From Balanoglossus misakiensis (taxonomy: Eukaryota > Animalia > Hemichordata), in assembly GCA_040954595.2 (NCBI GenBank), contig CM082591.2, forward strand, positions 2,966,259-3,030,258: a stretch of DNA of 64,000 bases. Direction: 5' to 3'. Position numbers and translations under genes: made by a program. A model generated the notes under the pieces. That model worked only from the letters and a program-made list of their open reading frames with translations, made no database searches and was not told where the DNA came from. Below are positions 1-36,900 of this stretch, one piece after another. Within the stretch, counting starts at the first letter, position 1. The number at the start of each line of letters is the position of its first letter.

Positions 1-3000
1 TGCTGGCTCTTCCGCCCGTAGCCTGTTTGCCAACGTGTCATCCTGCGAGTACAGGTACCTGTCCCTCATGGTGAAGAGGGCCTTGAAGACAGAAAATCTC
101 CCTTCTCCCTTTCGAAGATGCTGTATGAAAAGATGCTTATTTTTATTGAAGTATTTATCTTTTGTATACGTTGATGTAAGACCAAGTGATGGGCAATCAG
201 CCGTTAACATTGTACCAAGTACCTTCAGAAGTTGTGAAGGAGATACACTCTTAAGCCCTTTGTCCTCCCATAGTTTCACATAGCCCTCCCTTGCAGCAAA
301 TCCAGTGCTGTTTATCACTCCACCGTACAGCACTGTTGCAGGGAGACCCTGACTTCTTCGCAGCTGGCCTAAGCTGGCTAGAAATGCATTTGATGAGCAG
401 TAGCTAGCTTGGCCTGTATTACCAAGGAGGGCCACGATGGAGGACAGCAACACAAAGTACTTGATGGGGAACTGCATCTGCACTGTTAACTTATGGAGCA
501 CCAGGGCACCATAGGCCTTAACAGCCATCACTCTATTCCACATGTCAGCTGTTACGGTTTGCAACAAGCTGTCCGCATACACTACTGCACAGTGGAATAT
601 GCCTTCCACCTGAGGTATGTTATCATCAAGCTTGATATCAGTCAATGCCTTTCCAATCTGGTCGTAGCTTGAGACATCAACTGCCATTATCTCGATACAT
701 ACACCAGTGCTTCTCAGCTTTGCGAATTTCTGTTGGATTTCTTCTTCCGGGTGCTTGCTTCGGGAAAATATGATAACATACTTCGCTCCACACCTGACAA
801 GCCATTCTACAATCTCAGCACCAAATCCTCTGGACCCACCAGTCACAATATAAGATGACTTCCCATCCAAGTGAAAATCGGTATCTTCGAAGTCGAGTGG
901 TACGGAGAACACTTCATCATCTACAGTGACAACTTCCCCAGTAACTGTGTTATGCCTTTGTGTTGACAGTTCAGACAGATGAACATTACTGCAGAGTTTC
1001 TTCAGAAGCTGGTGGGTCTCATCTGATGACGACAGAGTTTCAAATAGTGCCTTTGCTTTCTGTTGGAAGAAATTTGATGAGACAACATTGTCTACGATAG
1101 TGTGCACATGTGTGACAACTACATTGGCGAGTGGAGGCAATGTAGCCCTGATTTTCTCGTCAATCATCTTGTTCTTCTGAAAGATTATCGTCCCCATTGG
1201 TCTTAGACTGGAACAAAGATCCTGTATTTGACTCGTCTTAAGGACTGCACCATCAGTGAATATGATAGTGTCATATTCATCAGGAAACTGGTTTGTAGGG
1301 CTTGATCTTTCACTGTCAGTATGATAGTCACTGGTTGATATGGTGTCACCTCCTTTCGGATCAAGGACAAGAGATTTAACTGACCATCCAAGGGACCTGG
1401 CCAAACTTGCAAGTACTGCACCCTCGACATCGCTTGTGTCATTTTGATATATCAGCAACCCACTGCCACCATCTGGAGATGTGGCTGTCATGTTTACAAA
1501 GGGAAGCAGCAGGTGGACAGTAGCTGTCAAAGCTTCACTCGCTGAAATTGGTTCAGGTATTTTACAGAGGAAATTAGCATCCACGGATTTTGTTGATGTT
1601 AGGTTTCCAGTATTGACTCCCATTACCATATCACCCGCTTGCAGTGTCTCCAACACTGCATCCCCGTCACGAACACTTCCACAGTAGAAGACCTTCAAAC
1701 TATTGGGACCATCATCTGTGTTATTTTCATCTACAATGGGCATGTAGCATGTCACATCGATCTGTACTTTCCCTGCAGACCTATTTTCATCTTGGATGTT
1801 CTCCTGTCTTTTGATCATCCATGATGAGTCCTTATTGTCTGTAAGCATCCAGGATTTTGTCTGGATAGTCCCATGGAAAAGTGTCTGTGGTTTTACCAAG
1901 ACACGTGGGGAGTAGATATCAAAAGACTCGCCATCTTCTGCACAGGGTCTCAGAGCTACATGGTTCTCATAAAGTGGGGGGTTCTTTAGGACATTAAAGA
2001 CAGATTTGACCAGGTCTCGATTGTGAGGGATCAGCGGCATGTCAATCGTGTACACAGGGAATTCTGGGTTCTCGTGGATAACAGTGAGTCCAACTGCTGG
2101 AACTGCTGTCATTGCTGGGAGCGTCTCTTCTCCATCAGTGACTGCTTGAGCACTTTTACTGATCAGCCAGAGTGTGGGATAATCACCATCAGTGATGCTG
2201 TTAAGTATGTTGTAGATTCTTACGCCCATGACACCTCCAATACATTGCGTTTCTTCAAACACCTTCAAGTTGGCCAGACTTTCGACATCCTGCTTCGTGC
2301 CAAGTGGTGCAGCCAGAATGATATCACTTGGGGCGTATGATTTACAGACCTCTGAAAACATTTCTTCCCATGACGAGTCAAGAAAGGACTCGCTTGAAAT
2401 TGTCTTGATTTCATCTCCATTTTCCAACATTTCTGTGACCAAAGCTGCAGAGAAGCCCGCCTTGTCTTCGATAACGAGATATTTCCGTTGTTTCATATTC
2501 TCAGCTGTTACCAATGATGGATTGTACTGACCACTGACTGAGATAGATGATATTTTCTCCCAGGTATTGTACCAGAGCAGTAGCTCATCAGGGGATGAGC
2601 GTAACTCTGCAAACTTGAAACCTTTGATGTAGCAGAATATTTCCATGGTCTTGGCATCTGCTGCAGTTACATCACAAAACATCCCATCACCGTGTTTATT
2701 CAGCTTTGTGTAGAAAACAACACTTCTGGGCGCCCTTCCCTTTAGTTTCAGTTCTTGGATCGAACGTGGAACACCAAAGGTAGGGGCAAAGGGGACTTTG
2801 GCAACTTTGGCAGCTTTTTTGTCCAAGAAGTATTTCTGGACAGCATAGGCCTGGAAAATGGAGTCGAGATAGGCAGGGTGAAAAATGTACCTGCTGGACT
2901 CCTGTTGGACTTCCTCCGACATTACCGAATAGAAGACCCCTTCTGCAGCACTGTCGTTTATGTAGACCTCTGAATTACAATAGAAAGAGCTTCCCAAAGT

Positions 3001-6000
3001 GAAGCCACATTCTACTGCAAGCTTAAAGAACTCTTCCTTGAAGAGCGTTATGTTGCATCTACTTTTCGTCTCTTCGACGCTGAGGTAAGCCTGGGACGTG
3101 TCAATTTCCTCATTCGATTTGAGGCACAATTCCATTGTTGAATGTAAAATCCACAAGCCACTGTTTGTATCTTTACTTCGAAGGGACAGCTTCGCGTTGT
3201 CCCCCTCGCCTTCCTCCACTGTAGTTTCGATGACTATAGTGTCTGAGGCAGAGGTTGGCGCAAACAGGAAGCGCTCAAACCACAAATTCTGAAGCTTCGT
3301 GTCTGCTTCTTGTGGTTTCAACTCTTGCGTTGCTGCCAGGGCTGTTTCCACATATGCAGCAGCTGGGACTATGACATTTCCTTGTACAACATGGTCTTTC
3401 AACCATGGAAGTTTCACAGTGGAAATTTCCGATTTCCATACAGAGATAGGACAATCAACAAGGTGTGACATATCCTGTCTTTCTCCAAGTAATACATGAT
3501 GTCTGAGAGGAAATCGATATAATTCTCTTCCACTTTCAGTCTCACAGCTACAGTTTACCTTTTGCCATGGGTAAGAGGGAACCGAACATTTCATGTACTG
3601 ACCATGCCTGAACAGGCTTTCCAAATCCACTTGACACCCTTCAACATAAAGCTTTCCAAATGACTGCATGAGATCTACAAGATCATCTGACATTACACTG
3701 ATGTCACGTGGTCTTTTCATAGAGTGGGTGATAAAGGGCTTTGAATGGCGAGATTTGCTGGCAGTAAAGATTTCATTCATTACTGGGTTCAAGGCTGGAT
3801 GTGGGCCAATTTCAAGGAAGCTTGTGTAACCCTCATCGAGTAACTTCTCAACTGCTGGCATAAAATTTACCTGTTGTCTGATATTACTGTACCAGTAGTT
3901 TGGGTCCCTGGCTTCCCTGACACTGACTATTTCATTAGTAACTGTGGACACCATCGGAATTGTTGGGCTATGAATGGTTTGTTCAACTGACTCAGTAAGA
4001 AACTTGACTTTCTTCAGAAATCGAGATTTGACAGCTTCTTGCTGAAAGCTGTGGAACGCATTATTGACTTTCAGAACAACACTTTTGATATTGTCTGCCT
4101 TGAGATCAGCCGAAAACTTATGTACTGCCTCAGTTTCACCTGAAAGCACAATTTGTGAGGGGCTATTAACAGCAGCTATGTCAAGCTTTTTCTGGAGAGA
4201 ACTATTTTCAAGTTTGCTTTTTACTTCTTCGATTGGGTGCAAAACAGCTAGCATTGTACCTGAACCACTTGTATGTCTCAGCTGGCGCCCTCTGTTGTAG
4301 ATAATCCGGACAGCATCTTCTAGTGACAGCAAACCTGCAGTGAAGGCTGCTGCTACCTCGCCTACACTGTGACCGACGATGGCGTGCGGGTTGACTCCAC
4401 ACAACCGCCATAGCTCAACGAGTCCGATCTGAATAGCACAAATTGCTGGCTGGGCGATTTCTGAAGTCAAATCAGAGAGGCATTATCGTGTTAACATAAA
4501 TGTAACTTTTCGTGTAAACAAAAACAATCGCTGCAAATAAAGTAAGTACCATAATATTTTACATCACCAGTGAAAGATGTATGTTATAACCCTTTTCGTT
4601 TTCACTTATGTTATACATTCATACTTCTATTTTTATGCCTACCTGTTTTGTTGACGAGTTCCCTGTCACTTTCGAGAGTTAACAGCTTAACAAGAGACCA
4701 CTTGGCTCCACATTTCTGTAGAATTTTGTCGATTCTCTGTTGATAAAAAAGAAAGTGTAAATTTGTCAATATTACATTGGCTACCAAGCATGTCTTTGTC
4801 AATCATGATGAATTTATGACTTATCACATATCTCTTTTTCACCAAACGTGAGCCATGTTTTCTTACCTTTATTGTATCTCTGAATGGCAAAAAGGAATTC
4901 ATCAGTTGCCTGGCCATACCCCACCACTGCGTTCCCATGCCAGAAAACACAAACACGACATGTGATTGTATCGATGTACGTGCCACGCCCTCAATCAAAT
5001 TATCCGATGTCTTCCCTTCCAGTCTTTTTCTCAGTTCATGGAGTATGTCTTGTTTTGTTCTCCCAACAACAGCAACTCGGTGTGAATGGTGCTGACTTTT
5101 CAATGCTGAAGTGTATGCAGCATTTGCAATAGCGGTGACATCACTTCCTGTGTCGTGCTCCAGGTAATCAATCCAATCAGACACGCGCTGTTCAATTGCT
5201 TCTTTGGTAGCTGCTGATGTTACCAGAATGATTGGTAACTGACTTTGGTTTATCTGAAGTGTCTCCATTGTAGATCTTCTAGATACTTGCTGTGGTTTTC
5301 TGTTTTCGTTCTGGTCGACATAGTGTGGTGGAGTGTATGCCTCAAAAACAATATGCGCATTTGCACCACCAAATCCGAATGAACTGCACCCAGCCAGCAT
5401 TTTCGAAGTTTGAGGCCAATTGAGACAGCTGTCTGGGATGTCTATACCATTCATCTTGAAGTCGATTTTCGGGTTTCCCTCTTTGAAATGAACAACTGGT
5501 GGAATCTTCTTATTCTTCAGACACACGGCTACTTTGATGACCCCAGCTACACCAGCCGCTCCTTCTGAGTGGCCAAAGTTGGACTTGACAGACCCAATGT
5601 AAAGTGGTTTCTTATCTTCTGGTCTCATTCTGCCCATTGCTTCTCCCAGAGCGTTGGCTTCTGTTGTGTCTCCTACCTGAGTACCTGTGCCATGGGCTTC
5701 CACATACTGGACGTCTTGTGGGTCGACATTTGCATGTCTGTATGCTTTCTCCACCAGCTGGACTTGGGCTTCGTAGCTGGGGTTCGCAATGCCAGGTGTA
5801 CGGCCGTCATTTGTGAGGGCACCCCCACGGATCACTGCATAAATCTGATCGCCGTCGTCCACTGCTGCCTGCAACGGTTTCAGGATCACCACTCCAGCTC
5901 CTTCGCTTCGAGAATAGCCATCTGCCGAGGCGTCGAAGCTTTTACACCTGCCATCAGGAGACAGCATGCCAGCCTGGCAGAAGCCAGCGCTTGTACCCGG

Positions 6001-7063
6001 CAACAGCAGCAAGTTGACGCCGCCAGCGACTGCCATCTGGCAGTCCCCGTTCCTGATGGCTTCGCTGGCTTGGTGGATGGCATAGAGGGATGACGAGCAC
6101 GCCGTGTCTATGGAGAAGCTTGGACCCCTGAAATCGAACTCGTAGGAAATCCTGTTGGAAGCCATACAGGTGTTGACGCCCGAGTTTGTGTACTGGCTGA
6201 TGTTGTCCGCAGGATGTGATGCTAGCGACGTGAATTCATTTGCTGTGATACCGATATACACACCGGTATTTGTACCTCGGACATCAGAGGGTGGCATGCC
6301 AGCATCTTCCAAACCTTCAAAGACAACTTCAAGAAGCAGGCGTACTTGGGGGTCCAGACTTGCTGCTTCATCTAAAATCACGGAAAGTAATATTCAGCCA
6401 ATAAAGTGATTGTCTAAAAAACGTGGTTAATTTACACACAGGCAAATCAGTCTATATAGTATACAACTGACTACTAGTTCAACTTGACGATCAGAAAACC
6501 AGACATGTTGTTGAATGGCGTCTTTAAAAAGTTGTACATGCGCAGTTCAGACTACCCTCGCCCTTACAAATGTTTGTTTCCCTACCTGGAGGAATCTTGA
6601 AGAACTGTCTGTCAAATGAATACACGTCATGATGTAGGTAACCACCACGCTGGTTGTACATTTTGCCTTTGGTTTTGTTGTTGGGACCACCAGGGTAAAC
6701 AAAGTAAGATGTGTCAAATCTGGAATATGGAACGATAATTTTTGTCAGTACACTAAACCAGGGGATGTCACAACAAAATTCAAATCTGCACCCATTTCAC
6801 AAATACATTATGGATCAGAGCCCGGGGATTACTCAATCGCGCCCTCTATGTTCAGATAAGTCTAGATCTTACCTATCGTCTGGTGTCGCTGATGTGCAGT
6901 CCATCCCTTCAACTAACATCTTCCAGAACTTTTGAGCATCGTCGATGCCGTTGGCGTAGCGACAGCCGATGCCGACAATGGCCACCTTTCGGTCAAGCGG
7001 AAGACTTGGGTCATCGTCGACCAGGCGACTCCTTAACTGTTTCTTACTTGCTGTGTTCCCCAT
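1..7063 (-). CDS. Animal iterative type I polyketide synthase, KS-AT-DH-(degenerate ER)-KR; 3' end (ACP etc.) lies beyond the window. Exons 7063-6873, 6719-6586, 6371-4867, 4736-4643, 4460-<1
   Basis: Motifs read from translation. KS: DTACSSS, EAHGTGT, KSNFGHSEGAAG. AT: VFVFSGMGTQW, GHSVGE, NAFHS. DH: LKDHVVQGNVIVPAA and HPAYLDSIFQ. KR: YIVTGGSRGFG and GNTGQASYCSSN. GT-AG introns keep frame, and frame is consistent at both ends of the >4.4 kb exon and in the segments translated. Confidence 0.95.
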
Positions 7064-12800: not shown

Positions 12801-15800
12801 AGTGTACTTCAATACAAAAAACTGCAGAAAAATAGGGCTGTCGGATAGCAAAGCATTCACAAATCATACCAGACAAACAGATGCCAGAACACCAGGCTAG
12901 AACTCAAACCTGTAAATTACCAATAAGCAGTTACACAAACACAAATACATGTAGGTACCAAAGGGCAGTTTACCTGTGCTACAGTTTCATGGGAATACTA
13001 GATGATGAAATATATATGTGTCAATGTCATTAGGGTAATCAATGTATTTTCACATTTATTTTTAAGACAAAGAAGATTATTGTTATTCATATTAGGTGTA
13101 GGTGTTAGTTCAATGGTCAATTCAACTCAAATATCAAACCACAAAAAGATTGGTTAACAGTAAATAGGTGACATGGTCATCACGCCAAAAAACTGAAGAA
13201 AGCAAAATCCAAGTGTAATTTGTTTGTTTGTGAGATACAGGATATATTTGATACACAGAAGTATTCTGGAAAAAAGCTACAGGCTACAGCAATGAAGCTT
13301 TAATAAATGTATAATATTATATGCCAGGATATTCTGTGTGTGATGTTTCTTCCCATAGAAAAGTGTACTGCTTGTCGCGAGATGATTCTCAGAGTCCACA
13401 CACTAGAAACTCACAACACAAAATGTTAAAAAAAATTCAAGTATGCCAAAATGTCCAAAAAATTCAATCTCATTGTACCACTTTGTGATGTGAGGAAAAC
13501 CTGTTTCCTGGTCCAACTGCTAATCGAAACATCTGTGTTTGCATGTAAAAGGATTTGTGGAAAATACAATAAGAATGAATTAAACTACGATAGGTGTATG
13601 TAGAACTGGATTATGGTTGCCTGTTTTTTTGTCTGCTGAACTACAATGAATCTGAAGAATTTTCACCAACCTGACTGATTCCTTTAGACAGTCCCTCCAC
13701 AGCACAGAAGAAAGGGGTGGCTCCGTTGGTGTTTTTGGAATCAATGTTCGCACCACTCTCCAACAGATACAGAACCAGTCTCTGTTTTGAAATGGAATAT
13801 TCATCAGATCATTTTCACAAATTTTTACCTATTTTCCCCATAAATTCTAGACCAAATGGACATAATTTTCCATTTTCTGCAGGTCTTGATCAATATTTCA
13901 TATATTTTTTTCTAAAATTTATCTAAAAGGTAATTTTGTGAAATTTTACGACATGTTGACTATCACGTTGAAAGAATCACATCAACACTAGACTCCCCTG
14001 ACCCATGCTCCACATGACAAACTCACATAGTGTCCATTCCTGGCTGCCCAGTGCAACGCCGTATTCCCTGTCCTCTTCTCCTTGGCGTTGATGAAAGACG
14101 GCCTCTTCTTCCGGAAGAAGACCACCAGTTTCTCCACAGTGTCCAGTTCTCCCATCTTGGCTGCCTTGAAGTAGAGCAGTTCCCACTGCAGAGTGTTGCC
14201 GGGAAACACCTGGTACATGAATCTGAAATGAAGACACCAGTCATAATTTAATTGTCATCAGTAAAGGTGAGTTCAGGCAGTTGGGTGTACCGGTATGTAA
14301 TACTGCATTACTTGTTTCTTTTTTACCAACTCTGAGAACATCTTGTCTTCTGCCTCCATGAAAATTAATAATGTGTGCACATAATCGCCTAGCATATGAG
14401 ACAAAGACAGACAAACATACCGACAGTTGCTGACAAGCAGATAGAGAACAACAGACAGACACACACACAGACAGACAAACGATAACACATTCTGTACTTA
14501 CAAGCTACCAGCTTTCAATGTTTTGTTCCTAGACTGGCTTTCAAAGTACATCTGGAACAGAAAACATAATACATTGTACAATGCTGCAAGTGCAGGTATA
14601 TGTTTAACCCCTTCACCCCCAGTTCCCTCTTTAGAGGTCCCAGCTTACCATAGAGAACAATGGATTTGGATTAAACCATGGTGGTGAAAGGGATAAATCT
14701 CACCTCATACTGTGGATAATCTGATGGGTTGATGTCGATCACTTCGCTTCTCGGCAGACCCAGAATCTTCCTGATAGAAACTGCAGTCACAAGAGAAACA
14801 GAAAAATAAAATAAGCAACAGTGATTGAGAGGAAAAATTTCAGGCATCACACTACTGGTAATTGAATTAATACTATAATGCATGTATCCATCTGGACAAC
14901 AAAGCAGACCCACACAGTCAAACAATCAAGGAACAAAACTTAGGTAGAACAAACTCACTTTTCTTCTGTCCCTTTGCTTGTGTGAAATCATCGATATACT
15001 CCCCAGTGTCCAGATGCTTCAAAACTATCCTCCTGTCTGGAGTGAAGGTCTCTTTCATCTTGGCATGGTAGAAGCCTGATCCTCCAGTCAGACTTAAATT
15101 TATCACCATGGATAGGCACAGATCGTTGATGGTGATGTTCCTGCAATACACAACATGTATGGTAATTGCTAGTACAATGTACTTTAGTGATGCTTACTTG
15201 TATGTATATTGAAAATAATATTTTGTGGAGATTCTAGTTCGTTCACAGCTTTTTATCACTGACATCATTGAAGTATAATGATCACCTTGGCACAGTAATG
15301 GTGTCAAACCTCTGCTTCATCTTCTCTGCCACGATACCTCTTGTCTGTCAACAGAAAAATGAAATGAAATAAAACGTTATGTCTTCAACATTTGTGCTAA
15401 CATTTTTTGCTGTACGTGTAGTTAGAATCAATAAATCAGCACTCACCTCTGCCTGTATCTCATCAACATGTCTCCACCATTTTCTGCACTCTTCTAAGTC
15501 ATAGATATTTGTTAATCGTTTATGTTCTGAAAGAAATATAAAGTGTTCATTAAGTATAAATTAAATGTCCTTTTAATGAAGTAACCGTAAATAATTTTGG
15601 TGACGGGAAATCAAGAACTCTACATACTCACCGCTTTCATAGGAATCTAAGTTACTTTTGAGTTCCTTCTTTCTCTTCAGCTCGGCCATTGTGTTTATGA
15701 TGGCCGGGAAATTTTCCAACTCGTGGTTGGCTTCACGGATCAGCTGAGTTAATTCAGCCTGTGTGAGAAGAAGACAAATATTTGTGTCAGTATTTGAGTA

Positions 15801-18680: not shown

Positions 18681-19876
18681 ACAGCTAAATCAAGGACGCC
18701 ACTTTGTATCTAGGGCCCAAACTTGGTCCATCACGACCCATTTCGACCGATCGTTTATATCGTGTCCTTCTATTGATATCTGAGGTCACTCTGGTTAGAA
18801 AAATACTCACCTGAACCACAACGGGTCCAAGTATGCAGGAAATCTCGGTGCTTACCGACACTGTAAACAAACCATTATTACCTGTCCCTTTCTAGCAATG
18901 GCGGCCACCAACTCCTTATCCTCGTTCGCCAGCATGTAATAATTTAATCCTCAAACAGAAACTAAACCTTATATCTAACAGAAAGAAACATTCTTTTGAG
19001 TTAAAAAGTCATACAATTACAGATACAAGCGTATATTACCACTCATCGTAATTATTTAACCCACCGTTGGAATTTGTTTATTTCAGTGTGTGAGGAAGGA
19101 CAGCTTCCGGTTACATTTCTTTGACAGATGTTGAAGTCAGGGATTCCCCTGCTGAACATATCGACTGCTGCTTACCGATTATCAAGATAGCTTATGGGTT
19201 TGTAAGTATAGTATAACGAACCTTCTCTGTTTTTAGATCACAATGTGACGATTTTACACTAATTTTTGACCCCATAATCGGCTGTTAACAATAATTAGCA
19301 ATCTTGTCAACGCGATTGACATTGTATTTTGTAATGAACATCCTCAGTGACTTCTTGCAAGCATCACATTTTACCTATAACGACTACGTCAGGAATATTT
19401 AAAGCCTGAAATCGGGGAATTCCCGATGCCCATACATGTATATGCCGAGTTTTCACATTTAAATCGAACCTGTGACGGCTAGTTATACTTTGCGAAACAA
19501 CGAAACAGCGAAACGACGAAACCATTATTAAAATAGGGGCCAGTCATCAAGACGGTGGCGTATGATTTTTTTAAAAGTTTCCAAATTAAAACGTAAGCGA
19601 GCCAAGAAAACTACAGGTCAGATAAATTGTTTTCTCGGAAATTCAACATTAGAATCAAATTTGACGTTGGAAACAAACGGCGGGTCGCCAGTTCCTGGTC
19701 TGCGGCCTGGTACTATGTAGTGGTCACGGTTACTAGAAGAAGACGGTTAGGAAACTATTTTTTCTCCATTGTTAGATGCTCGCCTCGGTAAACACTTAGT
19801 GTAAACGAAAGATATCAGGTGCTAACGAGCCTGGCCGTACGAATAAACAGACAGAATAACTGACCGCTCGGTAAAA

Positions 19877-22580
19877 ATGACGTCATTCCCCCCACAATCC
19901 AATGCAAACCATACTCATGTTTACGGAAGTGCTTGCACGCGCAGCAACAGTACGAATGCTTGTCCTCGACCACCAGAAATGCCTTACCAGTTTTCGAATG
20001 ATTATTGCTCGTTTGACGACGAGTCTGTCGATTGGGAGCATATTTTAGAAGAAGTGGAGTGTACTGAAAGTTACGAAGTTGACGACGACGACGACGACGT
20101 TGATGCCGATGGCAATGCCATCGAACGGCCGTCGCCTGTAAGAGAGACGAAGACCTGTCGTACTCGTAGGAAATTCGAATACGTTTGCCCAGTTTGCGAC
20201 AAGGTATATAAGAGCGTGAGTGGATTTTCATCGCACATGAGAGGTCATAAAATGATCGGTGTTAAAGGTAAGGCTTCTGCCATATTGTGTTATATATTTT
20301 TTCCGTACAAGTGGTACAAGGATTTAAAGTGTCGCGTCCATCGTTTCATTTTGGAAGGGTTTCGTACGTAGATGTTGGCGGAACCTGCACGTTGACTTGA
20401 GATGTTGACGAGTTACAAAAAGTTCATTTCAAACAAATATCATTTGATTTGGTAAAAACGAGGAAGTTTTAGAAAGTTGGGCAATTTAACATACGCAGTC
20501 GTTTTCGTGTTTGAATCTACACTGGCTTGGTGTCTTGGTCATTTCACAGTGAGTTACTAACTTGCCATTTCCTGTTGCAAAGTGCGATGATTGACACTGC
20601 ATTGTTACCAGCTGTGCTCTGTTTATTGCAGCTGAATTCCAGACACCTGGTTTTGACAAGCCATATCTTTCCACTGGTAACAGCTGCGAAGAACACTTCC
20701 AACATACTTTTGATAATTTTTATTCTGCAAAATTTCCAAATGATCACCTTATCAGACTGTGATGGCATGGTAGGATGTGCTACCATTTTCGAAACACAAG
20801 ACACTGTGCACCACTTCTTATTCTCATGTGACTTTGTTTGTGTACATCTACGTGTATAGTGTAAGTTGTCTGTATTTTGTTTCCAGTTTGTCTTTACATT
20901 TGAATTTTTAAGTAAATATGACATTTGATCTATGATATTTGGATAGGTATCAAGATGGTATAATTTGCCAGGTTTCATTGAAAAAATGGGCAAAAGATTG
21001 TGATTTTTTGATGCAATTCTGATTAGTTTCATTGTTATTTTTTCAGCATGTGAGCACAGAAGAGATGCTGCAATAACTATCTCTGACACCAGTATTCAGT
21101 GCAGTGGTCCAAAACAAACAGATGGGAACAAAAAGAGAAAGACAAGTAAGTTGAACTTTTGTTATTTTATTTATTCGAAAAATACTGCAACATTGTCAAT
21201 TTACAATTTTTTTATTCTGAAAGAAATGGTTTAATGATGCATGTTATCTTTATGAGAAAAAATATTGAAAAAGAAATGTTTATATATGGTATTAATATCA
21301 CTCTCCATGTTAAGTCTCGCATTTCATTAATTCAAAATGCTAGTAAAAAAATTACGACGGAAGTTGTTTTGCTTGTAACTTTTGTAAGCATGTTTACCTA
21401 TTTCAAAAAGCCTATTTCATGATCGAAATAAATTCTACAGTGATGACTTGGCAAAATTGTATTTGTGAACAACAGCACACACGTTGCTTTCTTAGTGATA
21501 TGTGTTTCTTCATGCTGTAATTCTCCTGCCTAACTGGCCTTTTCTGACATGCTTTTAACAATATTTTTCACAGAAATCACTAGACCTTTGCCCAGTTACA
21601 CAAAGGAAGACTACATGGGGGATCTCCCACGTCTGGCTAGAGACGTTATGAAAGATATAAGTGAAGACCCCAAATTCACTTTCAAAGGAAACATCTTTGG
21701 AGATGAAGTTGCGGCCTTGGCCAAAGATACATGGACCAACTTTAGTGGAGACAATTCGCATCCACAGCTTTCCCAGTTGGGAGAGACACTGTGGAAGTCT
21801 ATGGTTTCTGGGGACGCCAAGTACTTGCCATCGAATGGGAGAGAGGAGATTTGGAACAGCTTTTTCAATGTTTGGAGTACCATTGAAGACCAAATTTTAG
21901 CGAGAAGCTTTATAAGGGATGTAAACTCAATTGCAATGACATGCAAGAGTGATGGAATTTTCCGACTGGCTCAAGTTTTCATTATGAAGCTTATGTTTAC
22001 ATCACTGAAAGTTAGATACCAGTCAGTGCCCAGTACAAAAGCAGAACGCCAAACAGTGGAAATCAACCTCACAGAAGAAGAAGAAAGCGCTCTGCGTTAC
22101 ATGAGTGGCTACATACCATTTAAACTCAAGAAGAAATTGACAACCCGGAAATTTAGGTCTTCTTATCTACAGTGTATTACTGCTATGGGGGAGAAGGATG
22201 CCATGGAATGGGACTCACTCAGCTCATCTCGGAAATGGGTGGACAAGCAAAACAGGGGTGGTCTTTTTAGGATCAACGATTGCACTTTTTTGTTCTTTAG
22301 AAAGATGGAAGTAATTTTCCGTAAATGCAGAAATGAGCAATGTTCAACAGCTACAACAGAAAACACAGTGTTGACTAACAACTATATTTTACAGCAGTGG
22401 TCAACAATATGTAAAGATGTAGATGATGACAGTATCTGTCAAAGAGTTTTGCTGATGGTTGTTAAGTTGTTTGTCCAAGTGAGAATGTTCTCCCATGCCA
22501 GAGAGGTCGTAGAGTCATACAAAAAGATTACAAAATCCCATACACAAGGGTCAAAAGGTTTGAGGAAAACGCTCCATTAG
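19877..22580 (+). CDS. Transposon second gene (~498 aa): acidic N-terminus, C2H2 zinc finger, and P-transposase/THAP9 C-terminal-domain-like region. Exons 19877-20267, 21047-21145, 21574-22580
   Basis: The exons (391+99+1007 = 1497 nt) splice in frame via GT-AG. C2H2 finger YVCPVCDKVYKSVSGFSSHMRGH. Motifs ALRYMSGYIPFKLKKK, WVDKQNRGGLFRI and VVKLFVQVRMF resemble the YIAGY..K / RGGL / Y..IR motifs of the P/THAP9 C-terminal domain. Confidence 0.82.
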
Positions 22581-22638
22581 TCATTCTTGCCAGAAGATAT
22601 CAAGATGGCAGTGTATGAATTTCAAATGTAAGTTACAG

Positions 22639-23219
22639 TTCTGAGAAGTTCACATGGAGCATCAAAAAACTAGGTGCCTGTGTCTAATCTGTTTCAAAGT
22701 ACACCTGTGGCCAGGATTTAGATAAATGACACTTAAAGACCATTTACATTTCAGTTTTCACTTTTTATTTTAGACCAGTGTAAATCTGACCTGCATTGTA
22801 TACTGTATTTTTACATTTCTGAGAAGTTCACATGGAGCATCAAAAAACTAGGTGCCTGTGTCTAATCTGTTTCAAAGTACACCTGTGGCCAGGATTTAGA
22901 TAAATGACACTTAAAGACCATTTACATTTCAGTTTTCACTTTTTATTTTAGACCAGTGTAAATCTGACCTGCATTGTATACTGTATTTTTACATTTCTGA
23001 GAAGTTCACATGGAGCATCAAAAAACTAGGTGCCTGTGTCTAATCTGTTTCAAAGTACACCTGTGGCCAGGATTTAGATAAATGACACTTAAAGACCATT
23101 TACATTTCAGTTTTCACTTTTTATTTTAGACCAGTGTAAATCTGACCTGCATTGTATACTGTATTTTTACATTTCTGAGAAGTTCACATGGAGCATCAAA
23201 AAACTAGGTGCCTGTGTCT
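22639..23219. repeat. Tandem repeat, 178-bp unit x ~3.3, between the 3' ends of the two transposon genes
   Basis: Unit TTCTGAGAAGTTCACATGGAGC... restarts at 22639, 22817, 22995 and 23173; copies appear identical. Confidence 0.95.
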
Positions 23220-23367
23220 TTTTAATGTGTACATAGACAGCATTTTTTGAAATTAAACGCTTCATTGCTATTTTTGACAGTGGTAAACTGACTTCTATTG
23301 TTTCATTCAAAGACCTGACAAGTTCCCAAACTAGACACTGTGCCCTGTACAAGGTACTTGATAGAGT

Positions 23368-26300
23368 CTATTTCCTGTGGCGTTTTGGTAATGGTAAATC
23401 AAAACCATTTGTGTGTTCCTCTCTACCAAGGTTCCGTCCAGTGTTTCCTGTCAAGCACTGCAGTTGATTGGACCTCTGCAGCCGAATCACGTTCTCCTGG
23501 TAGCCAAACTGCTGAACTGTTGGGTCATTATTTGCCCCACCTCTTTGTCTGTGTTTGCTGAAGTGTTGTTCCAGGGAGTCTTGACAGAATCGTTCACTCA
23601 AAATAAATTCTACCCCTTCAGTCAAAAGAAATCTGCACACCTCAACAAAAGACTTGACTGTAACAAAAAAAAAGAAGTTATCTTAAATCAAGTTTTGTTT
23701 GATGAAATGAGGCACAATAAGTTAATTACTTGATTTGCACCATCACTTGCATGGGGATTTGATGTTTAATGGAAAACAAACTGTTTGAATGGGGCATCAA
23801 TGCTTTGATTTATACTGAAGTCTGTTTACAAATTATAATTCTAATAAAACTTGTGTATATATTAAGTATCCTGGGTGTGTTTTGTTCATCCACTTAAACA
23901 TATGCCATCCAAATGTTTAAAGGGTGCCTATAACAAAGAATTTAGTGTGGTCTTGTAGAAAAGAATGGAGGTTGTGATAAAAATTGCGATGAGTTTATAA
24001 CATTGTTCATCCACGGCACCAAACTTCAAGACAACACATATAATACAACATTGCTATTTTCATCACTCACCTGACATTGTCAATCCCTGAAGAGTTTGTC
24101 TACTCAGACACATGGCACCCATCTGCTTCTTTGTGAATGTTCCTGGTCTCCTCTCTACTGACTCTTTCCATTCAGTAAAGTATGCAAGGAAATCATTCTC
24201 CAACCACTGCAATGAAAATTTATACAGTCCAGTTAGAAAAATCGCTAAAATACATCAGTGTTTCTGAGAGCCAGGCTGTTGGTAAAAGAGTCAAAGGAGT
24301 GAAACTAGCCGAAATGGGATGTTCATCTTATTCACAGTCAGTGTGAAAGAGAGCTCCCCCAAAAAAGCTTGCAAAGCAATCATGAACAGGGGAATTATGT
24401 AATTAAAAAATGATTCATGAGCCTGTGAATGAATGTTTATTCTGCAAAACAAGAAATAATTGAAATAATATTTTACCAATGGAGATAAGCAGACTTTTAA
24501 AATGTAAAAAATCTCTTTGTATGCAATAGTAGATAAGTAACACACACATGACAGATAATGACTGAATCACAGACTAAAAAACCCACACAAAATCTTATCT
24601 TACTGTGAGTCTGGGATCTGCAACATCTGTATATGGTGCCAAATCAGGCTTCATCTTCTTGTGTGATTCCCTCAAACTTCTGACGTTAAGACAGTCAAAA
24701 AAACGGTCCATCATTCGTACAAATTGAACAGTTCCTCCAGCTTCTGGTGGCCCATACATTTCTATTGCATTTGCAACTGTTTGACTGAGCACCTGCACGT
24801 GACAAAATAAACAATGTGTTGTTGTATGTCAAGTCATGAAATCCACATTTGGACAGCACAACTTTACAATGATTTTGCATATTCTTGAGATAATTTAACC
24901 TACCTGAGCTGCCAGATTCACTCTCATGATTGAGAATGATGTTAAATGGATATGTTCCCATCCTATCTTGTTAACCAGATGTATGGGTCTATCTTGGTCT
25001 CTGGTAACAAGGTCTGACAGGTGCCTCCACAGAATTGGCTGTCCGTTGTTCTAGACATTAAGAAAAGAAAAGAAATGACTGTAAATGGTTTACTTATAGA
25101 AGTATTTAGAAAATTCATCACACTTGGTTAGACATCAAGTTATGTTGTGTGAGTGTACTCATCAGTTCAATCACATGTGCTACTCAACATGTACATGTAC
25201 TATCAATATCTACACAAATACTACTGAGGAGGCCATGAGTGAAACATTTCCATGCTACATGTAATAACATTCAAACTGGCTGAATCTCAAATGAATTCCA
25301 CTTTTTTTTTCATTTTGTGGACTTTCTCACTTACCCATAGGCTACGAGTTCTAGTGTGTGCCTCAGAGTTAGCCCAGCAATTCCTGGTAGTTTTCACCAA
25401 GTGTGGCACATCCGAGAAGAAGTAGATAAATCTCCTATCAAGGCTTAAGGGATTGATAGCTTTGTGGATGATGAAATCATTGGGCACGCCTGGTGTTCTG
25501 TGTAGCTTGTAAAACCTGCGGTTTGGTGTTGCTCCATCACTTGTTGAGGCAATAACCTTCAAACCGCATGAAACTTCCAAGTAACAAATTGCCTCCCAGA
25601 TGATAGAAAACAATTCATCTGATCGTGTACCATTTGTTGGATAATATGCCACACAGTATTTCATATCTGTTGCAACACCGCGGACCATGAGGGCAAGTAC
25701 GTGGGTTGCTAGATCTGGTTTAGGACTGCAATTTCTTGTCTGCTCACTGCACCATTTTTCATACTGTTCAAGTTCTTGATTGACACTTCCAAGATTAACA
25801 TAGCCAATAAGCTCCCCAGTTGTTTTGTCGTAAACAAGTTGACTCTTCAATTTCATTTCATCATGGAGCAGCACGACATATCTCTTGTGGTCAGGCAGGC
25901 TTTTCACATCATACTCTGAAACCAGGCTTTCTAGAACATGTTCATTTACACCTGTTTCTGGTTTGATGTAATTTGTATAGTCACGTAAAGTCCGCTGGCT
26001 TGGCAAGGTTACAAAGCCTGAAGAACGCATTGCTTCATAGCCCGAGGATGACTGCAATTTCAATGCCAAGCACCATCTTATGATAGCAGGGTGCCATCTC
26101 ATCCCACGCAGATTACTGCTGTTTGCTTTACATTGCTCCTCCCAGAAAATTCTTTTGAAAGAGCCTTCTGGGAACTCAGACAGTACTTTGGCATTTGACT
26201 CCTTCATTATGTCCTGAAAATCTTTACTTTCAGATGTCTTCAACTGAAGTCCGTTAGTTTCTATGTTGTTCTTCAAACACTGCCGTAATTTCGCCCTCAG

Positions 26301-27152
26301 GTTATCATTCTCTGACTGTATGTTGCGGTTCCTTTCAACAATTTCTGCTTTACTGAGGAAACGATAATTAACTTTACTGTCTGATGATGTTCTGTCAACT
26401 TCCTTCAAATCTCCACTGATCCTTCGTGAAACTGCTCTCCTCAAACTGTCTCTACTTTTTGAGCAAGAATCGCATCGTATCTTCTTATCTTCGGTGAAGA
26501 ATGTGCAGCCACCACTTCTGACCGTTCTGGAGTATGAAATGCCAAACTTACTGACGCCAGCATAATAGGGCTCCAGGTAAGTTGGGCTTGAATCGCCTTC
26601 AGCAGAGGGTGAGCTGTGTGGCTTTCCTAATGTGCCACCCCTTTCCTCAATCAAAGAAGTAAAGTCATCTTCGTAGTTCCCGGCACAGATGTCAAGGGAT
26701 GACAGAACTGTAAATATTTCTTTCACAGTCTCTACGTCATGTACATGTGATGGAAAATTACGTAGTTGCGGTAGTTCATTGGAAAGCTGTCTTCCATGAA
26801 TAACCATAGTCCAGGTTAATGTCCTTTCAAAAATCAAGCACCTCTTTACTATAGGTTGTTTATCAATACCAGGTAACAACTGCTGAACCATGATTTTCTC
26901 GTCTACCTCTGCACAACACCATCCATCTCGCTGCTTTTCACTTGCAATCTTTGTCAGCTCATTACTAATAGCTCTTCTTTCCCTCATAACAGTGGAGAGT
27001 TTCTCATTCTTCTCTTTTTCTTCTAGTAACCGTGCTTGAACTAACAGTTGCTCTTCAATCTTTTTACGTTTCTCCTTGGCAAATTTCTTTGATGCCAAAA
27101 TTTTCTTGTATTGACCTTTTCTTTTGGAGAGTTTTCCCATTTTGAACGGCAT
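23368..27152 (-). CDS. P-element/THAP9-family DDE transposase (~859 aa), no recognisable THAP domain, no C-terminal domain. Exons 27152-25335, 25050-24904, 24792-24604, 24206-24071, 23657-23368
   Basis: RWHPAIIRWCL..LPSQRTLRDY (HTH), LLHDEMKLK (D1), TSDGATPN (D2), FSDVPHLVKTTRN, MRVNLAAQVLS and DRFFDCLN (GTP-binding insertion), FCQDSLEQHFSKHRQRGGANNDPT (catalytic E). Exons total 2580 nt, in frame, with no internal stop seen. Confidence 0.93.
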
Positions 27153-29474
27153 GCTTACTCGTTGGTTGCAAAGACTATCCTAGAGGAAAACAGAACAGAA
27201 ACTAGATAAAGTTTGATGTCACAACACATTTATGACAATTTTGAACTTTCAAGGACGTGGTGAAGCCATACAATATTTGTCTTGAATCAAACCCTAGAGA
27301 TTCGATGCGAACCAAAACAAACAAGATGGCCGCCATACATCAATGTTACTACGGTTATCGAAATGCGTATGAAATCTCGACGAAATATGCCACATGGAAT
27401 TAACGAAATAGCCCATGCACTACAAAAAGGAGTAAAATATATAAATATATTAAAAAATAACAGAAATGCGACCATCAGAGTTGAATTCTAGAGGTTCAAA
27501 ATTCGACGCCATTTTGAATCTTGGAATAATGTCCTTTTCACGACCACTATTTTAATTCACGGCGTTTGGTGCGTTTGCTTCCACTAAACCATATAAAATG
27601 TAAATTTCCAAGCCGAAAGATAACAGTCTACCATATGGTAACTGATAGAGTAGTAATCAGACGAAATTTTGTTTCGGTGACGGACTTATAGTTAACCAGC
27701 CCAAGAAACGTTGATAGAAAATGAAATATTGGAACACTCGGAACAGGCAGTGATATCGCGGTTACAGAGTGCCCGAACCCGAACAGACTATGACTGTGCA
27801 CTCCGTAAGCATATATGGAACTCGTAAAAAAAAAAATGACTATGTACTCTTGACGAAAAAGGGCAGTTGAAGGGGTTCAAAAATTAGCTAGGTCATCCAA
27901 AGTCGCCATCAGGCTTTTATGATTTAGACATCATAAAACACAATCAAGAATTTGACCTCAGAACTGGAAGAATCTGTATGAAATACCCACCTTAGAATAG
28001 AAAAGACGTTCACCCAACAGTACGATCTGTTCAAGCGATAAAATCCACTTCTCTTGGCTGCAATTTCTGGAATGTGCAGGAACACACCAGAGCGTACCCA
28101 CGCCACAAACCCAAGCTGTGACGTCATCAACGCGCGTAGCGGTTCGGACATGGACTCTCCTAGCTAACACCTCGTTCACACCTTCCGAACAATAGAGTTT
28201 CCTAACCGTCTTCTTCTAGTAACCGTGGTAGTGGTAGAGTCGACGTCGTGTGCGCGCAAACGATTCATGCCAAACTGCTACATATACACAGTGAATATAC
28301 GCGCGCGCACAACGAAACCACAAAAGATCGAAACCTCAAAATGCGGCAGCAACTGTCACTATTTCCTTAAATACCACAAGGCGGGGAGGCATGAATTGCA
28401 ATTAAGATAATAAAGAAATTTCGACAATGATACTGTGTTGTGTGAGTTACATGTGTTTCTATATATAACTACTACTCTTACCCCCCATCAGTGTTTGACC
28501 CTCGAAAGCTTACGGACACTACTGCTTTGTTTCAACTAATCCTTAGCCCTGTGAATATACTCGTACATTGACCTTTTGGGGCGGGATTCTTTTTTGGCGC
28601 GCAACCACTAGTACCAGGCCGCAGACCAGGAACTTTTTTGGAAACTTTTTAAAAAATCATACGCCACCGTCTTGATGACTGGCCCCTATTTTAATAATGG
28701 TTTCGTCGTTTCGCTGTTTCGTTTCGCTGTTTCGTTGTTTCGCAAAGTATAACTAGCCCCTGTGACGACAAATTGCTGATAAAAACGAATGCTATGAATT
28801 ACTGTATTCTGTATGAAACTCTTTATTTGTTTATGATTGACTGAAGTCTCAAGATTGAACGTCTGGTAAATGCTTCGGTGACACAATTTCAAGGGTATTT
28901 GTTTGATTGTTGTCCTATAATCAACCATAATGATCATGCTGTAACAGAAAAAAATCGGTAAACCAATAATAGACTTTTGGTGAGCGAGTTTATATAGGCC
29001 ACACTTAGCCTACATTAGTCACCTTATAAACCCAACCAATGACGATTAGTCCCGGGGCGGTCCTATACTCTAGGATTGCCCAGGACTAAGTTCGGCATGG
29101 CTCTCTACACTCTCTTGGGGTTTAGAGTCATGCTGACGTCATAACTTTGAAAATAAAGAACAGATTGACGGCTAATACTTGTGTGGAATTGTGTCTGGTA
29201 TACTTCTGTGCAGGTGATCACAATGTCATCCATGAAGTAACCTTTATAATCAGTGTTGATGCTAAGGCATGATTATAGTGTAAAACCAATATTTATATGT
29301 CAGACGCTATATTGTTCTGTTCATAGTCTGTGGTTTCCACTGCATCGGAGTGAAATGAAACCATACATGTAGATGATGTACTTGTTATGTATACGTCTCT
29401 TTCGTTTTCTCACTTTTTCTCAGTTCACGGTGTGAATTTCTATGTTTTGACCTTCAGCTGTGAAAAACAGGACA

Positions 29475-33910: not shown

Positions 33911-36900
33911 CTAACAGGAAATGAGTTTTTGGAACGCTCTCCTGAACTCCATGTTGAAGACAGTGTAGATGACCGGGTTCATTGTACTGTTGATGTACCC
34001 GATCCACAGTGCGAACTGTATGAAAAGTGATGGAACAGAACACGTTGGACAGGCTCCGAACATGATGTTTAGCGTGAAGAACGGTATCCAACAGAAGAGA
34101 AACACTCCTGTGAAAGAAATAAAAGTGAAAATCAAATGGAAGTTTGAATAATTAAGAGCGCCACTTTAGAACTCCATATGAATTGACATTATTTTTTCGT
34201 CGGAAAATCCCAAACTGTCATGACACGGATTCAGAATGCTAGAATTGTATCATGCATGACCATGAAAGCGATTAATGTATGTGTACAATGGGGGCGAAAA
34301 ATACTTTCTGTAGTTTTTTGACAAAACTGGTTGTAGGTTAAGGAGATGAAGTTACAAAGAGAAAGGGAAACAAAGTATGTTACCTAAAACTATTGCAAGT
34401 GTTTTTGTAGCTTTCCTTTCCTTTCGCATGGAGAATTTTTGTCTTTGACTTAAAACTGGCACAGTTTTCTTCGAATTTTGGCCGAGATGTGTTTCCTGTC
34501 CTCCTGTGTGTCTTACAATGCTGTTTCTTCCACTTTTATTGGCTGTTGGCATGTCACTGCCGGTTGGAACTGGTTTATCTCTGTTCAGGTCTGTTTTATC
34601 CGGGTTCCGATTCGAACCGGTTTGTTCTTGACTGTTATGACCAGGGCTAGCCAGATTTCGGCTCAATTGGTCAGAATGTTGCTCGGTTGGCTCCCTGGCC
34701 TGTTCGTCTGACGGCGTTAAATCGGAGACGTCCGTTTTATTGGCGACGATTATTGTGTTCTCCGTGGCACCAACCCGCTTCACGCGATTTCTGATCGCCA
34801 CGTACACCAGGGTGTAAACAATCACCATGGTGACGGCCGGAATAACAAATGAAAACACTGAACTCCAGATCATGTAAGGACCATTGAAGAGAATGCAAAG
34901 TTCTGGAATCCTCCCGGGGACATCATTGGCGCCGAACAGAATGGGACAAGATATGACGAACGATATAATCCAGACCGTCGCTATGGTTATTGCGATGCGC
35001 TGATTCGGGCGTTGCCTGGCATAAGCGAGGGGTTTAGTGACGGCGTAAAGCCTGTAATATAAATAAAAAGATATTTTTGATATCAAAATGGACACTGTCT
35101 ATCCACTGGAAAATTGACGAGATGATATTAACCATAACTGTGCTTCTTGCGTCAAAAGAAGTGAACGTCGGCAACACGGAGAAAGACTAAATGGCGCCTC
35201 CAAGTGTTCAATTCCGCCATCACCTACCTGTCTATGCTAATGGCTGTCAGGTTGAAGATAGACGCAGTGCAAAGCATGACATCCAGTGCTACCCAGAAAT
35301 CGCATAACTTGTTACCCAGATACCATGCTCCTAGATTAACCTGGGAAAGAGAAAAAGAAGGAAATTGAAGGAAAAAGGTATAACATCATTGTTGCTACTG
35401 CTGATATTTAGAAGTGAACATGCTGTCGGGTTTAACTATGTAATCAAGCCTTCAAGATGGTCAGCATGTATGTACAGTACACCACTACCAATCCGTAAGG
35501 ACAAGTCGTGATAAATAAGGATTTATTTCACTGATGAGTTTCAACAGCTGTCTCATCTCACGAGCTATTCGTTTAATTGGTACAAGAAATCGACGCCACC
35601 CTTAAAGACAGTTCTAACGCCTCCAAGACTGGCAATCTCACCTATCTAAGAGGACAGTAAAGGACATCATCGTCTACTTGACGTCTGTCACGTTCCACAT
35701 CTTATCAAAGTAATTTCTCCAATTATACTTGGCAAATTGAAGTGGGCAGACGAGTCTTTCGACCTTGCGGCCTAACCTTCCTTCATCTGCTGATACTTAA
35801 CTTTCCTTAATAGTCAATTTCCCCCATGAAGTCCCACCAGTTCATTCCAATCGAGGAAAATGCAGGTTTCTTGTACTTAATATATCTCCATGGCAACGAT
35901 GTTCATTCGTTCGTGTGGCGCTTATCAACATACTATAACTTGGCATTGCGACTTTCTAGAATCCTCCGATGGGATTATGCACGCTCGATCGGAAATAATC
36001 ATGTATACAGACGTCTATCATGATGAGAACTTCTATCCTATAATTGAAAATTTCGAAGCATTCAACTCGATCAATCTTATCTCAGCGACTGATGTGAAGT
36101 GATTTGCGGTATAAACGCGTATTCACGTATCCGCCTTTGTGAGCATGCCACAATGACTCGCCTCTACATAACTGCATATGTCTTACAATTCATTCTGACA
36201 TTTTGATCAAAAGGCTGCCTTCCTGAGCTATCAGTACTGACACGCGTGAATCTGCGGGACCTCCCGATGAGATTAGTTGTCGATTGGAAAATCCCTCTCG
36301 GACATTTGGATTCATCTATGCAACCCGTACAATTAGATTTTGATAAATACATAGAAAAACGTATTATCAAGTCCGGCGTTTTCTTTTTTGTTGTTGAAAG
36401 TATAACAAAAGTTGCTCGTTAATCGCTACTTCAGCGTGCCAGTCAACTCATACACGCTGTGTATTTTTTATCGCCACACTCGCCTCATGCGTCCTGTACT
36501 TTATTATTTAGCTGTCTGAATCGGTCTTTTCTCACACAACGACTGAGGCGTTTACAGGGCGTGAACGCACCCGATTGTCGAAGGGGGTTTTAATGAGAAA
36601 AATATCTCCTTAGACCAATCTTACGCGAAGTGTTTAAAACGACGTGGAAACCTATCAAGACTTTAATCTACCTCAGATGCTTGTCTGTGACCGAATGCAA
36701 TTGTAAAATGAAGAAAGATTGAATTCCGGTAACTGTCGCTTGGAATAGTATACTAAAATGAGATCCAGTCTAGCAGTTCTTACTTTGTTGTGTGCGTAGC
36801 TGCTATCACACAGAGACATAGCGAGTCCTGGATATGAAAGAAGCCTTGATGAAAATGTCATGATGACTTCAAGTTCCGAGAGTGACGTCTACAGCGAGAG

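Follow-up and report, generated by a model that had tools for sequence, protein, structure and literature searches.

A P-superfamily transposon of Balanoglossus misakiensis with a transposase C-terminal domain homolog on a separate, convergent gene

Structure of the element and its two genes

We analyzed a 64,000-nucleotide stretch of DNA (the window) from the hemichordate Balanoglossus misakiensis (GenBank assembly GCA_040954595.2, contig CM082591.2, positions 2,966,259 to 3,030,258, forward strand), which contains an 8,503-bp P element at window positions 19725-28227. P-superfamily termini follow the pattern CANRG. An initial annotation, made from the sequence alone, had described perfect 32-bp terminal inverted repeats (TIRs) and an 8-bp target-site duplication (TSD), and both are borne out: the left TIR (19725..19756, plus strand) starts with CACGG and is identical to the right TIR (28196..28227, minus strand), and GTAGTGGT flanks the element on both sides (19717..19724 and 28228..28235). 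The element thus has the TIRs and 7-8-bp TSD that characterize the superfamily (PMC3698922). Two convergent gene models lie between the TIRs, with stop codons 787 bp apart. As first described, both are open, spliced and arranged tail to tail, with predicted GT-AG introns and one stop each. A 334-codon open exon such as they contain has a chance of about 1e-10. The gap between them holds a tandem repeat of about 3.3 units of 178 bp (22633..23219).

The minus-strand gene is predicted to encode a transposase of 859 aa in five exons separated by four introns. Exon 1 (25335..27152) encodes a basic N-terminus, an alpha/beta domain, four conserved cysteines, a coiled coil, an HTH (helix-turn-helix) and the part of the RNase H domain with D431 and D539. 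Exons 2 (24904..25050) and 3 (24604..24792) encode the GTP-binding domain, exon 4 (24071..24206) the end of this insertion domain, and exon 5 (23368..23657) the C-terminal part of RNase H with E793 (23571-23569), followed by a 66-aa tail with a PLPKR-type basic motif and the stop. With an alternative acceptor site, intron 1 leads to an 855-aa model that is likewise open. The predicted splicing gains indirect support from relatives, since exon breaks near profile positions 575, 625, 687 and 731 are shared by the window copy and two metagenomic loci (L053 and L054), and since the 859-aa model aligns to 13 homologs without large gaps.

P-superfamily enzymes are known for GTP-dependent cutting that leaves 17-nt staggered ends. 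Using Pfam, we found matches above cut-off to TNP-like RNaseH_N (PF21787, E 1.8e-25), to the GTP-binding domain (PF21788, E 1.5e-5 in exon 2 and 7.4e-8 in exon 3) and to RNaseH_C (PF21789, E 5.2e-9). The RNase H DDE and GTP-binding motifs first noted in this protein therefore stand, while the HTH listed with them gave a weak match (PF12017, E 0.04). The best match in the PDB is the Drosophila enzyme (6p5a_A, E 0.0014). All three catalytic residues, D431, D539 and E793, are present, and a DxxH motif (DVPH, at 581) lies between the second Asp and the Glu, where C/DxxH is a signature of the superfamily (PMC9587614). The Drosophila GTP residues K385, K400, V401, S409, F443, D444, N447 and D528 (PMC7776569) have counterparts in the model by spacing, judged by eye, with K400 as Arg.

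The transposase's N-terminal region differs from the canonical type. In agreement with the initial annotation, we detected no THAP (C2CH) domain in a Pfam scan of two 5' open reading frames (ORFs), by reading three frames by eye, or by tblastn with 129 proteins including two THAP-bearing homologs, searches that a small divergent 5' exon could escape. Instead, the alpha/beta domain is accompanied by C156, C216, C227 and C230, which are conserved in 97-100% of 78-80 aligned relatives. This region is modeled with a predicted local distance difference test (pLDDT) score of 90, and its first 94 residues give weak fold matches of the RWD/MotA/Mediator type (best Z 8.0); THAP is not among the fold matches, in a search that barely covered the Cys4 part. 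The clade-specific segment with the four near-invariant cysteines (26975-26460, minus strand) matches no Pfam family and is a candidate new zinc-binding, DNA-binding module. Among 21 relatives scanned, N-termini vary: two carry a THAP domain, and two others (P0097 and P0100) begin with a RAG1 importin-binding-like domain (PF12560) in its place. Judged from these sequences, N-terminal modules are swapped within the transposase clade.

The plus-strand gene, hereafter gene 2, is modeled as three exons that are predicted to encode 498 aa. Exon 1 (19877..20267) encodes an acidic stretch, which by eye resembles the start of protein P0001, and one C2H2 finger (PF00096, E 1e-5, above cut-off). The predicted exon 2 (21047..21145) keeps the frame across GT-AG introns and encodes a linker with a basic patch, and exon 3 (21574..22580) encodes a family-specific helical domain followed by a domain resembling the C-terminal domain (CTD) of P transposases (about 22060-22580), with a basic terminal helix. 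The CTD motifs that had been placed in this gene are indeed there, with YMSGY at aa 339, RGGL at 391 and RMFS at 467.

The C2H2 finger is absent from the relatives of gene 2, both from 159 family proteins (0/159), many of which look like single-exon calls, and from 34 loci (0/34). The distance from the TIR to the CTD part is below 750 bp in 31 of these 34 loci, and the helical domain fills most of it. The finger is ruled out as a family-wide substitute for THAP by these counts; it would be an addition peculiar to its lineage, with a possible influence on expression or on the choice of target. An HHalign probability of 0.1% likewise rules out the N-terminal domain of gene 2 as a duplicate of a part of the transposase.

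The transposase C-terminal domain and the gene 2 protein

The transposase stops 66 aa after E793, close to the 65 aa or so of the initial annotation, and the polypeptide with the catalytic core carries no CTD. In Drosophila, the ordered CTD begins at residue 617 (6p5a_B), and the catalytic Glu is E531 (PMC7776569), so the window transposase ends in the region that is a disordered linker in the Drosophila enzyme. The same source describes the CTD as hanging on this linker and contacting donor and target DNA, and the break therefore sits at a natural seam.

The short tail is not peculiar to the window copy. Of 307 homologs found, we listed 120. The catalytic Glu motif is present in 18 of these and missing from 102, mostly fragments, which are uninformative. 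The 18 proteins all terminate 50-127 aa beyond the Glu, 15 of them at 60-69 aa; in most, a PLPKR-like motif forms the end, and none has YxxG or RGGL in its tail. In two genomic relatives, the stop comes 68 and 75 aa past the Glu. The named homologs are from hemichordates, molluscs and amphioxus, and among those listed hemichordate proteins are the closest, with 57% identity. Across the sequences compared, absence of the CTD is a clade trait of the transposase. One could suppose that the two transcripts, which converge and overlap in space, are rejoined into a single canonical-like chain by trans-splicing or an unseen exon. Yet the CTD profile matches the plus strand of the window only, with no CTD-like sequence on the minus strand into which the transposase might splice; the terminal motif and stop are family-wide, and gene 2 begins with a start codon of its own and a N-terminal domain that is conserved. 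We regard rejoining as highly improbable.

We modeled the fold of gene 2 exon 3, in which residues 161-315 are confident and all helical and the earlier part is poor. Against 48,161 chains, the best match is residues 617-734 of 6p5a_B, the Drosophila CTD, with Z 11.5, a root-mean-square deviation of 2.2 Å and 112 of 118 residues aligned; the runner-up reaches Z 7.6. The matched part is the last ~160 aa of the protein. Foldseek, proposed at the outset as a check on the 498-aa protein, also ranks 6p5a_B first for the exon 3 model (probability 0.99, E 0.11). A profile of 127 gene 2 sequences finds 6p5a_B as its best PDB match (E 0.022), aligning YIAGYV and HGGL of the Drosophila protein with YxAGYV and RGGL of the family, and the Pfam family Tnp_P_element_C (PF12596) matches 18 of the 127 members (best E 3.4e-4) while no other Pfam family matches more than two. 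A search of the ESM Atlas with gene 2 gave unrelated matches only, at 0.82 or less.

These comparisons covered the Drosophila CTD and PF12596. One alternative is that the likeness is a chance match between helical bundles and that gene 2 encodes an accessory protein without kinship to the CTD, in the manner of Kolobok or Harbinger. The single matches are modest and the ESM Atlas was uninformative; against this, structure, profile-to-sequence and Pfam searches all rank the P transposase CTD first and align the same two motifs. We consider a chance match exceedingly improbable, as all the matches point to the one domain that the partner transposase lacks. The claim that gene 2 encodes a CTD-like domain is therefore upheld in modeled structure and in profiles, and a homolog of the P transposase CTD on gene 2 is supported. 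The window element is a real and apparently intact member of the P superfamily, yet it stands outside the canonical P/THAP9 type, with its CTD fold encoded on a separate gene.

The gene 2 family is large, and its proteins stand alone. At E <= 0.001, 6,857 protein clusters match gene 2, a number that may include some distant one-gene CTDs, and the best 150 of these matches are 188-493 aa long. No longer, fused relative was seen among 7,995 candidates, which is weak evidence, and the viral contigs searched hold no relative of gene 2 or of the transposase.

Pairing and joint inheritance of the two genes

We scanned metagenomes and found 52 gene 2 loci in 10 assemblies. A convergent transposase lies downstream of gene 2 in 34 of the 52, and in 29 of 36 once loci with less than 1 kb of flank are set aside. 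It is never upstream (0/34 loci with 1 kb of upstream flank) and never on the same strand. Among the seven exceptions in this set are truncated copies and a locus where another ORF takes the place of the transposase. In L006, an ORF of 741 aa (1412-3634, minus strand) that does not match P transposases sits immediately downstream of an intact gene 2 and is possibly another inserted element. In the reverse test, gene 2 was found in convergent orientation at three of four transposase-first loci, the fourth being a fragment. In 13 of the 21 loci examined for ends, both genes lie within a single TIR pair, and nine have exact 7-bp TSDs, two of these probably being one insertion. In L053, a 40-bp TIR with a 7-bp TSD encloses both genes. 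The convergent pair thus recurs in related elements, as the initial annotation had anticipated.

Two side observations concern these loci. In L055 (9719-12510), an internal deletion has left transposase exon 1 and some of gene 2 in place. L053-L056 are intron-containing, animal-type transposons in contigs titled as bacterial metagenome-assembled genomes, which points to host DNA in the assemblies.

To compare the histories of the two genes, we kept those 29 of 38 loci that had enough coverage and grouped them into 15 families. Between the two genes, pairwise identities are correlated (Spearman 0.60, permutation p 0.0006), and their trees (14 families, L055 left out) agree in most clades, sharing the groupings L001-L027-L015, L009-L011 and L026-L049 and a group of ten. 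The trees were made without a one-gene P transposase outgroup and do not polarize fission versus fusion. Gene 2 families are 21-59% identical, yet the gene is open and the motifs are kept. Among 10 gene 2 pairs, the ratio of nonsynonymous to synonymous substitution rates (dN/dS) was measurable in three, at 0.28, 0.25 and 0.71, the first being the sole pair both unsaturated and clearly diverged. Of the others, six of the 10 are saturated at synonymous sites (proportion of nonsynonymous differences, pN, 0.23-0.38) and one pair is nearly identical.

These data weigh on the possibility that gene 2 is a passenger or relic and that the clade transposes without a CTD. Joint inheritance would follow from a position inside the TIRs, and some loci have gene 2 without a transposase. 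A passenger, however, would have to keep an open frame and its motifs across such divergent families, with synonymous change far above replacement change, in a fixed position and orientation, and with the fold of the very domain that its partner lacks. We find this quite improbable.

A proposed two-protein transposase and its relation to known systems

Taken together, the observed anatomy, domain content, linkage across families and fold match suggest a P-superfamily cut-and-paste transposon in which the convergent gene 2 supplies the CTD as a separate subunit, and we consider it probable that the active enzyme is a two-protein complex. In such an enzyme, the large protein would dimerize, with its HTH binding the inner half of each TIR, probably at the motif GGWTWGGAAAC, and with the Cys4-containing N-terminal region of the clade, rather than a THAP finger, helping to bind the TIR. 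The RNase H DDE center, with GTP bound, would cut and join DNA. The CTD fold of the small protein would dock at the place of the Drosophila CTD, which lies between one subunit's RNase H domain and the GTP-binding domain of its partner. There it would guide the single-stranded transposon end, and its basic last helix, which is conserved and parallels the basic end of the Drosophila CTD, would reach target DNA. The extra N-terminal helical domain of gene 2, perhaps with the conserved transposase tail, may stand in for the lost covalent linker.

Several observations count against this proposal. The CTD match of Z 11.5 concerns a small, all-helical domain and falls below about 13, a level that helical bundles can reach without kinship, and its Foldseek E-value is 0.11. 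The window gene 2 protein alone matches neither the Pfam CTD family (Pfam scan) nor 6p5a_B (phmmer in the PDB), a 32-sequence profile missed the CTD in the PDB, and the C-terminal domain of human THAP9 is reported not to align to the Drosophila protein (PMC10824691). As to the pairing, a single assembly accounts for 22 of the 52 loci, the gene pair was seen in five of 10 assemblies, a downstream transposase is missing from 7 of the 36 loci whose flank reaches 1 kb or more, and the transposase-first test covers four loci, three of them from one record set. Agreement between trees argues for joint inheritance and not for contact, because any passenger inside the TIRs would show the same, and one close gene 2 pair has a dN/dS of 0.71. 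The replacement of the linker is conjecture, since the N-terminal half of the model has a pLDDT below 50.

The TIRs bear on which protein might read the transposon ends. GGWTWGGAAAC lies 20-25 bp inside all eight TIRs compared, including those of the window (19745-19755 in the left TIR), a count that is not an independent test because the motif was defined by eye from the same TIRs. The later matches are independent: the motif occurs 52 times in the loci versus 1.0 in shuffles, and 50 of the 52 lie behind a CANRG terminus. In the 64-kb window, the motif is confined to the TIRs. In Drosophila, it is the inner TIR half that the HTH contacts (PMC7776569), which makes the large protein the likelier reader of the motif. 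The initial annotation had suggested that gene 2 might recognize DNA ends; as a general mechanism through its C2H2 finger this fails, because the finger is absent from the 159 proteins and 34 loci and the conserved TIR motif is present in elements that lack it.

A different division of labor would keep gene 2 as a CTD derivative that acts as a regulator or one-step helper, with the large protein excising alone and the small one controlling repression or the capture or choice of the target. In Drosophila, the CTD extends towards target DNA, and truncated products serve P elements as repressors (PMC7776569); a separate promoter permits separate control, and the added C2H2 finger would suit a regulatory or targeting role. 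The CTD, however, also holds the looped-out donor strand in the same account, and as no transposase of the clade was seen with a CTD of its own, nothing else would supply those contacts. We judge this division, the leading alternative, unlikely, and a two-protein enzyme remains our preferred reading.

More broadly, one may imagine a large, multi-phylum P branch that depends on both subunits of its transposase. The DNA-guiding CTD would there be a free module with expression of its own, lineages would add their own DNA-binding domains, such as the C2H2 finger of the window copy, and target capture would be controlled and would evolve apart from catalysis, a parallel to RAG1-RAG2 reached by gene fission and not by capture. 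We put this forward tentatively, as possible but rather doubtful. If it were true, the branch would offer a natural modular, retargetable transposase.

P elements are a textbook eukaryotic transposon, described as one-protein systems. The Drosophila melanogaster P element, with its 87-kDa transposase (PDB 6P5A/6PE2), resembles the window element in its RNase H DDE domain with GTP-binding insertion, its HTH and its CTD fold, as well as in a TIR of about 31-32 bp and an 8-bp TSD (PMC7776569). It differs in carrying THAP and CTD on one polypeptide, whereas the window has two convergent genes, no THAP and a Cys4-containing N-terminal region. Unlike the Drosophila protein, the window CTD protein also has an extra helical domain and a C2H2 finger. 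Galileo and 1360/Hoppel, of the P superfamily, carry a single transposase gene. They are intronless and have 7-bp TSDs (PMC3698922). A 7-bp TSD is also seen in 10 related elements, while the window copy has four transposase introns, an 8-bp TSD and two genes. Vertebrate THAP9 and zebrafish Pdre2 share Pfam core domains with the window transposase, and databases label some relatives 'THAP9'; THAP9 itself, unlike the window system, combines THAP and a C-terminal domain in a single chain (PMC10983969, PMC10824691).

The likeness to RAG1/RAG2 or Harbinger that was first drawn holds for the layout and not beyond it, the 5-bp TSD, Transib core and propeller with PHD of RAG being absent here. RAG2L is a captured, unrelated propeller protein (beta-propeller plus PHD) and no fragment of the transposase. 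In the second window protein, the confidently modeled part is all helical and matches the P CTD. RAG-like transposons (ProtoRAG/RAGL) share two convergent genes between TIRs with the window element, but have a Transib-type enzyme and a 5-bp TSD in place of P-type Pfam domains and an 8-bp TSD (PMC7204232). Kolobok elements of the KolX and KolobokP types also have a second gene, downstream on the opposite strand in KolobokP, and share C/DxxH; their second genes encode unrelated nucleases, helicases or ballast-fold proteins, and their TSDs are TTAA (PMC9587614). We found no description of a two-gene P element in full-text searches of the open literature, a scope outside which lie Repbase, Dfam and most subscription journals.

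In a widespread clade whose CTD has a gene to itself, the role of this domain becomes directly testable, and the window copy is a good candidate for an activity assay because both frames are open and the ends are perfect. A two-protein transposase would explain thousands of 'uncharacterized' invertebrate proteins, would make annotated 'truncated THAP9' genes complete halves of a pair, and would provide an enzyme in two parts, the smaller of which could be used as a switch or as a handle for targeting.

The TSD of the window copy is 8 bp, versus 7 bp in all 10 relatives with an exact TSD, whose termini are CATAG, CATGG or CAGAG. TSD length varies within the two-gene clade, and this variation may track changes in the small subunit.

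The P element is inserted into a 771-bp non-coding host element (19477..28758; 19477-19716 plus 28236-28758), which is not part of it and carries its own 8-bp TSD (19469-19476 and 28759-28766). The host element resembles a miniature inverted-repeat transposable element (MITE), with long TIRs that start with GGCTAG, and an extra 26-bp inverted pair within it (19690-19715 and 28609-28634) may mark a further nested element. There is no Rfam match anywhere in the 64-kb window. A 94-bp dispersed, MITE-like repeat with inverted ends has four window copies, at 14604, 16196, 17592 and 43587 (68-82% to the reference). Reading by eye, we take positions 4687-6393 (minus strand) to be an exon of a polyketide/fatty-acid synthase-like gene, with the ketosynthase and the start of the acyltransferase, and 34352-35098 (plus strand) to be, presumably, an exon of an aminergic, dopamine-receptor-like G-protein-coupled receptor.

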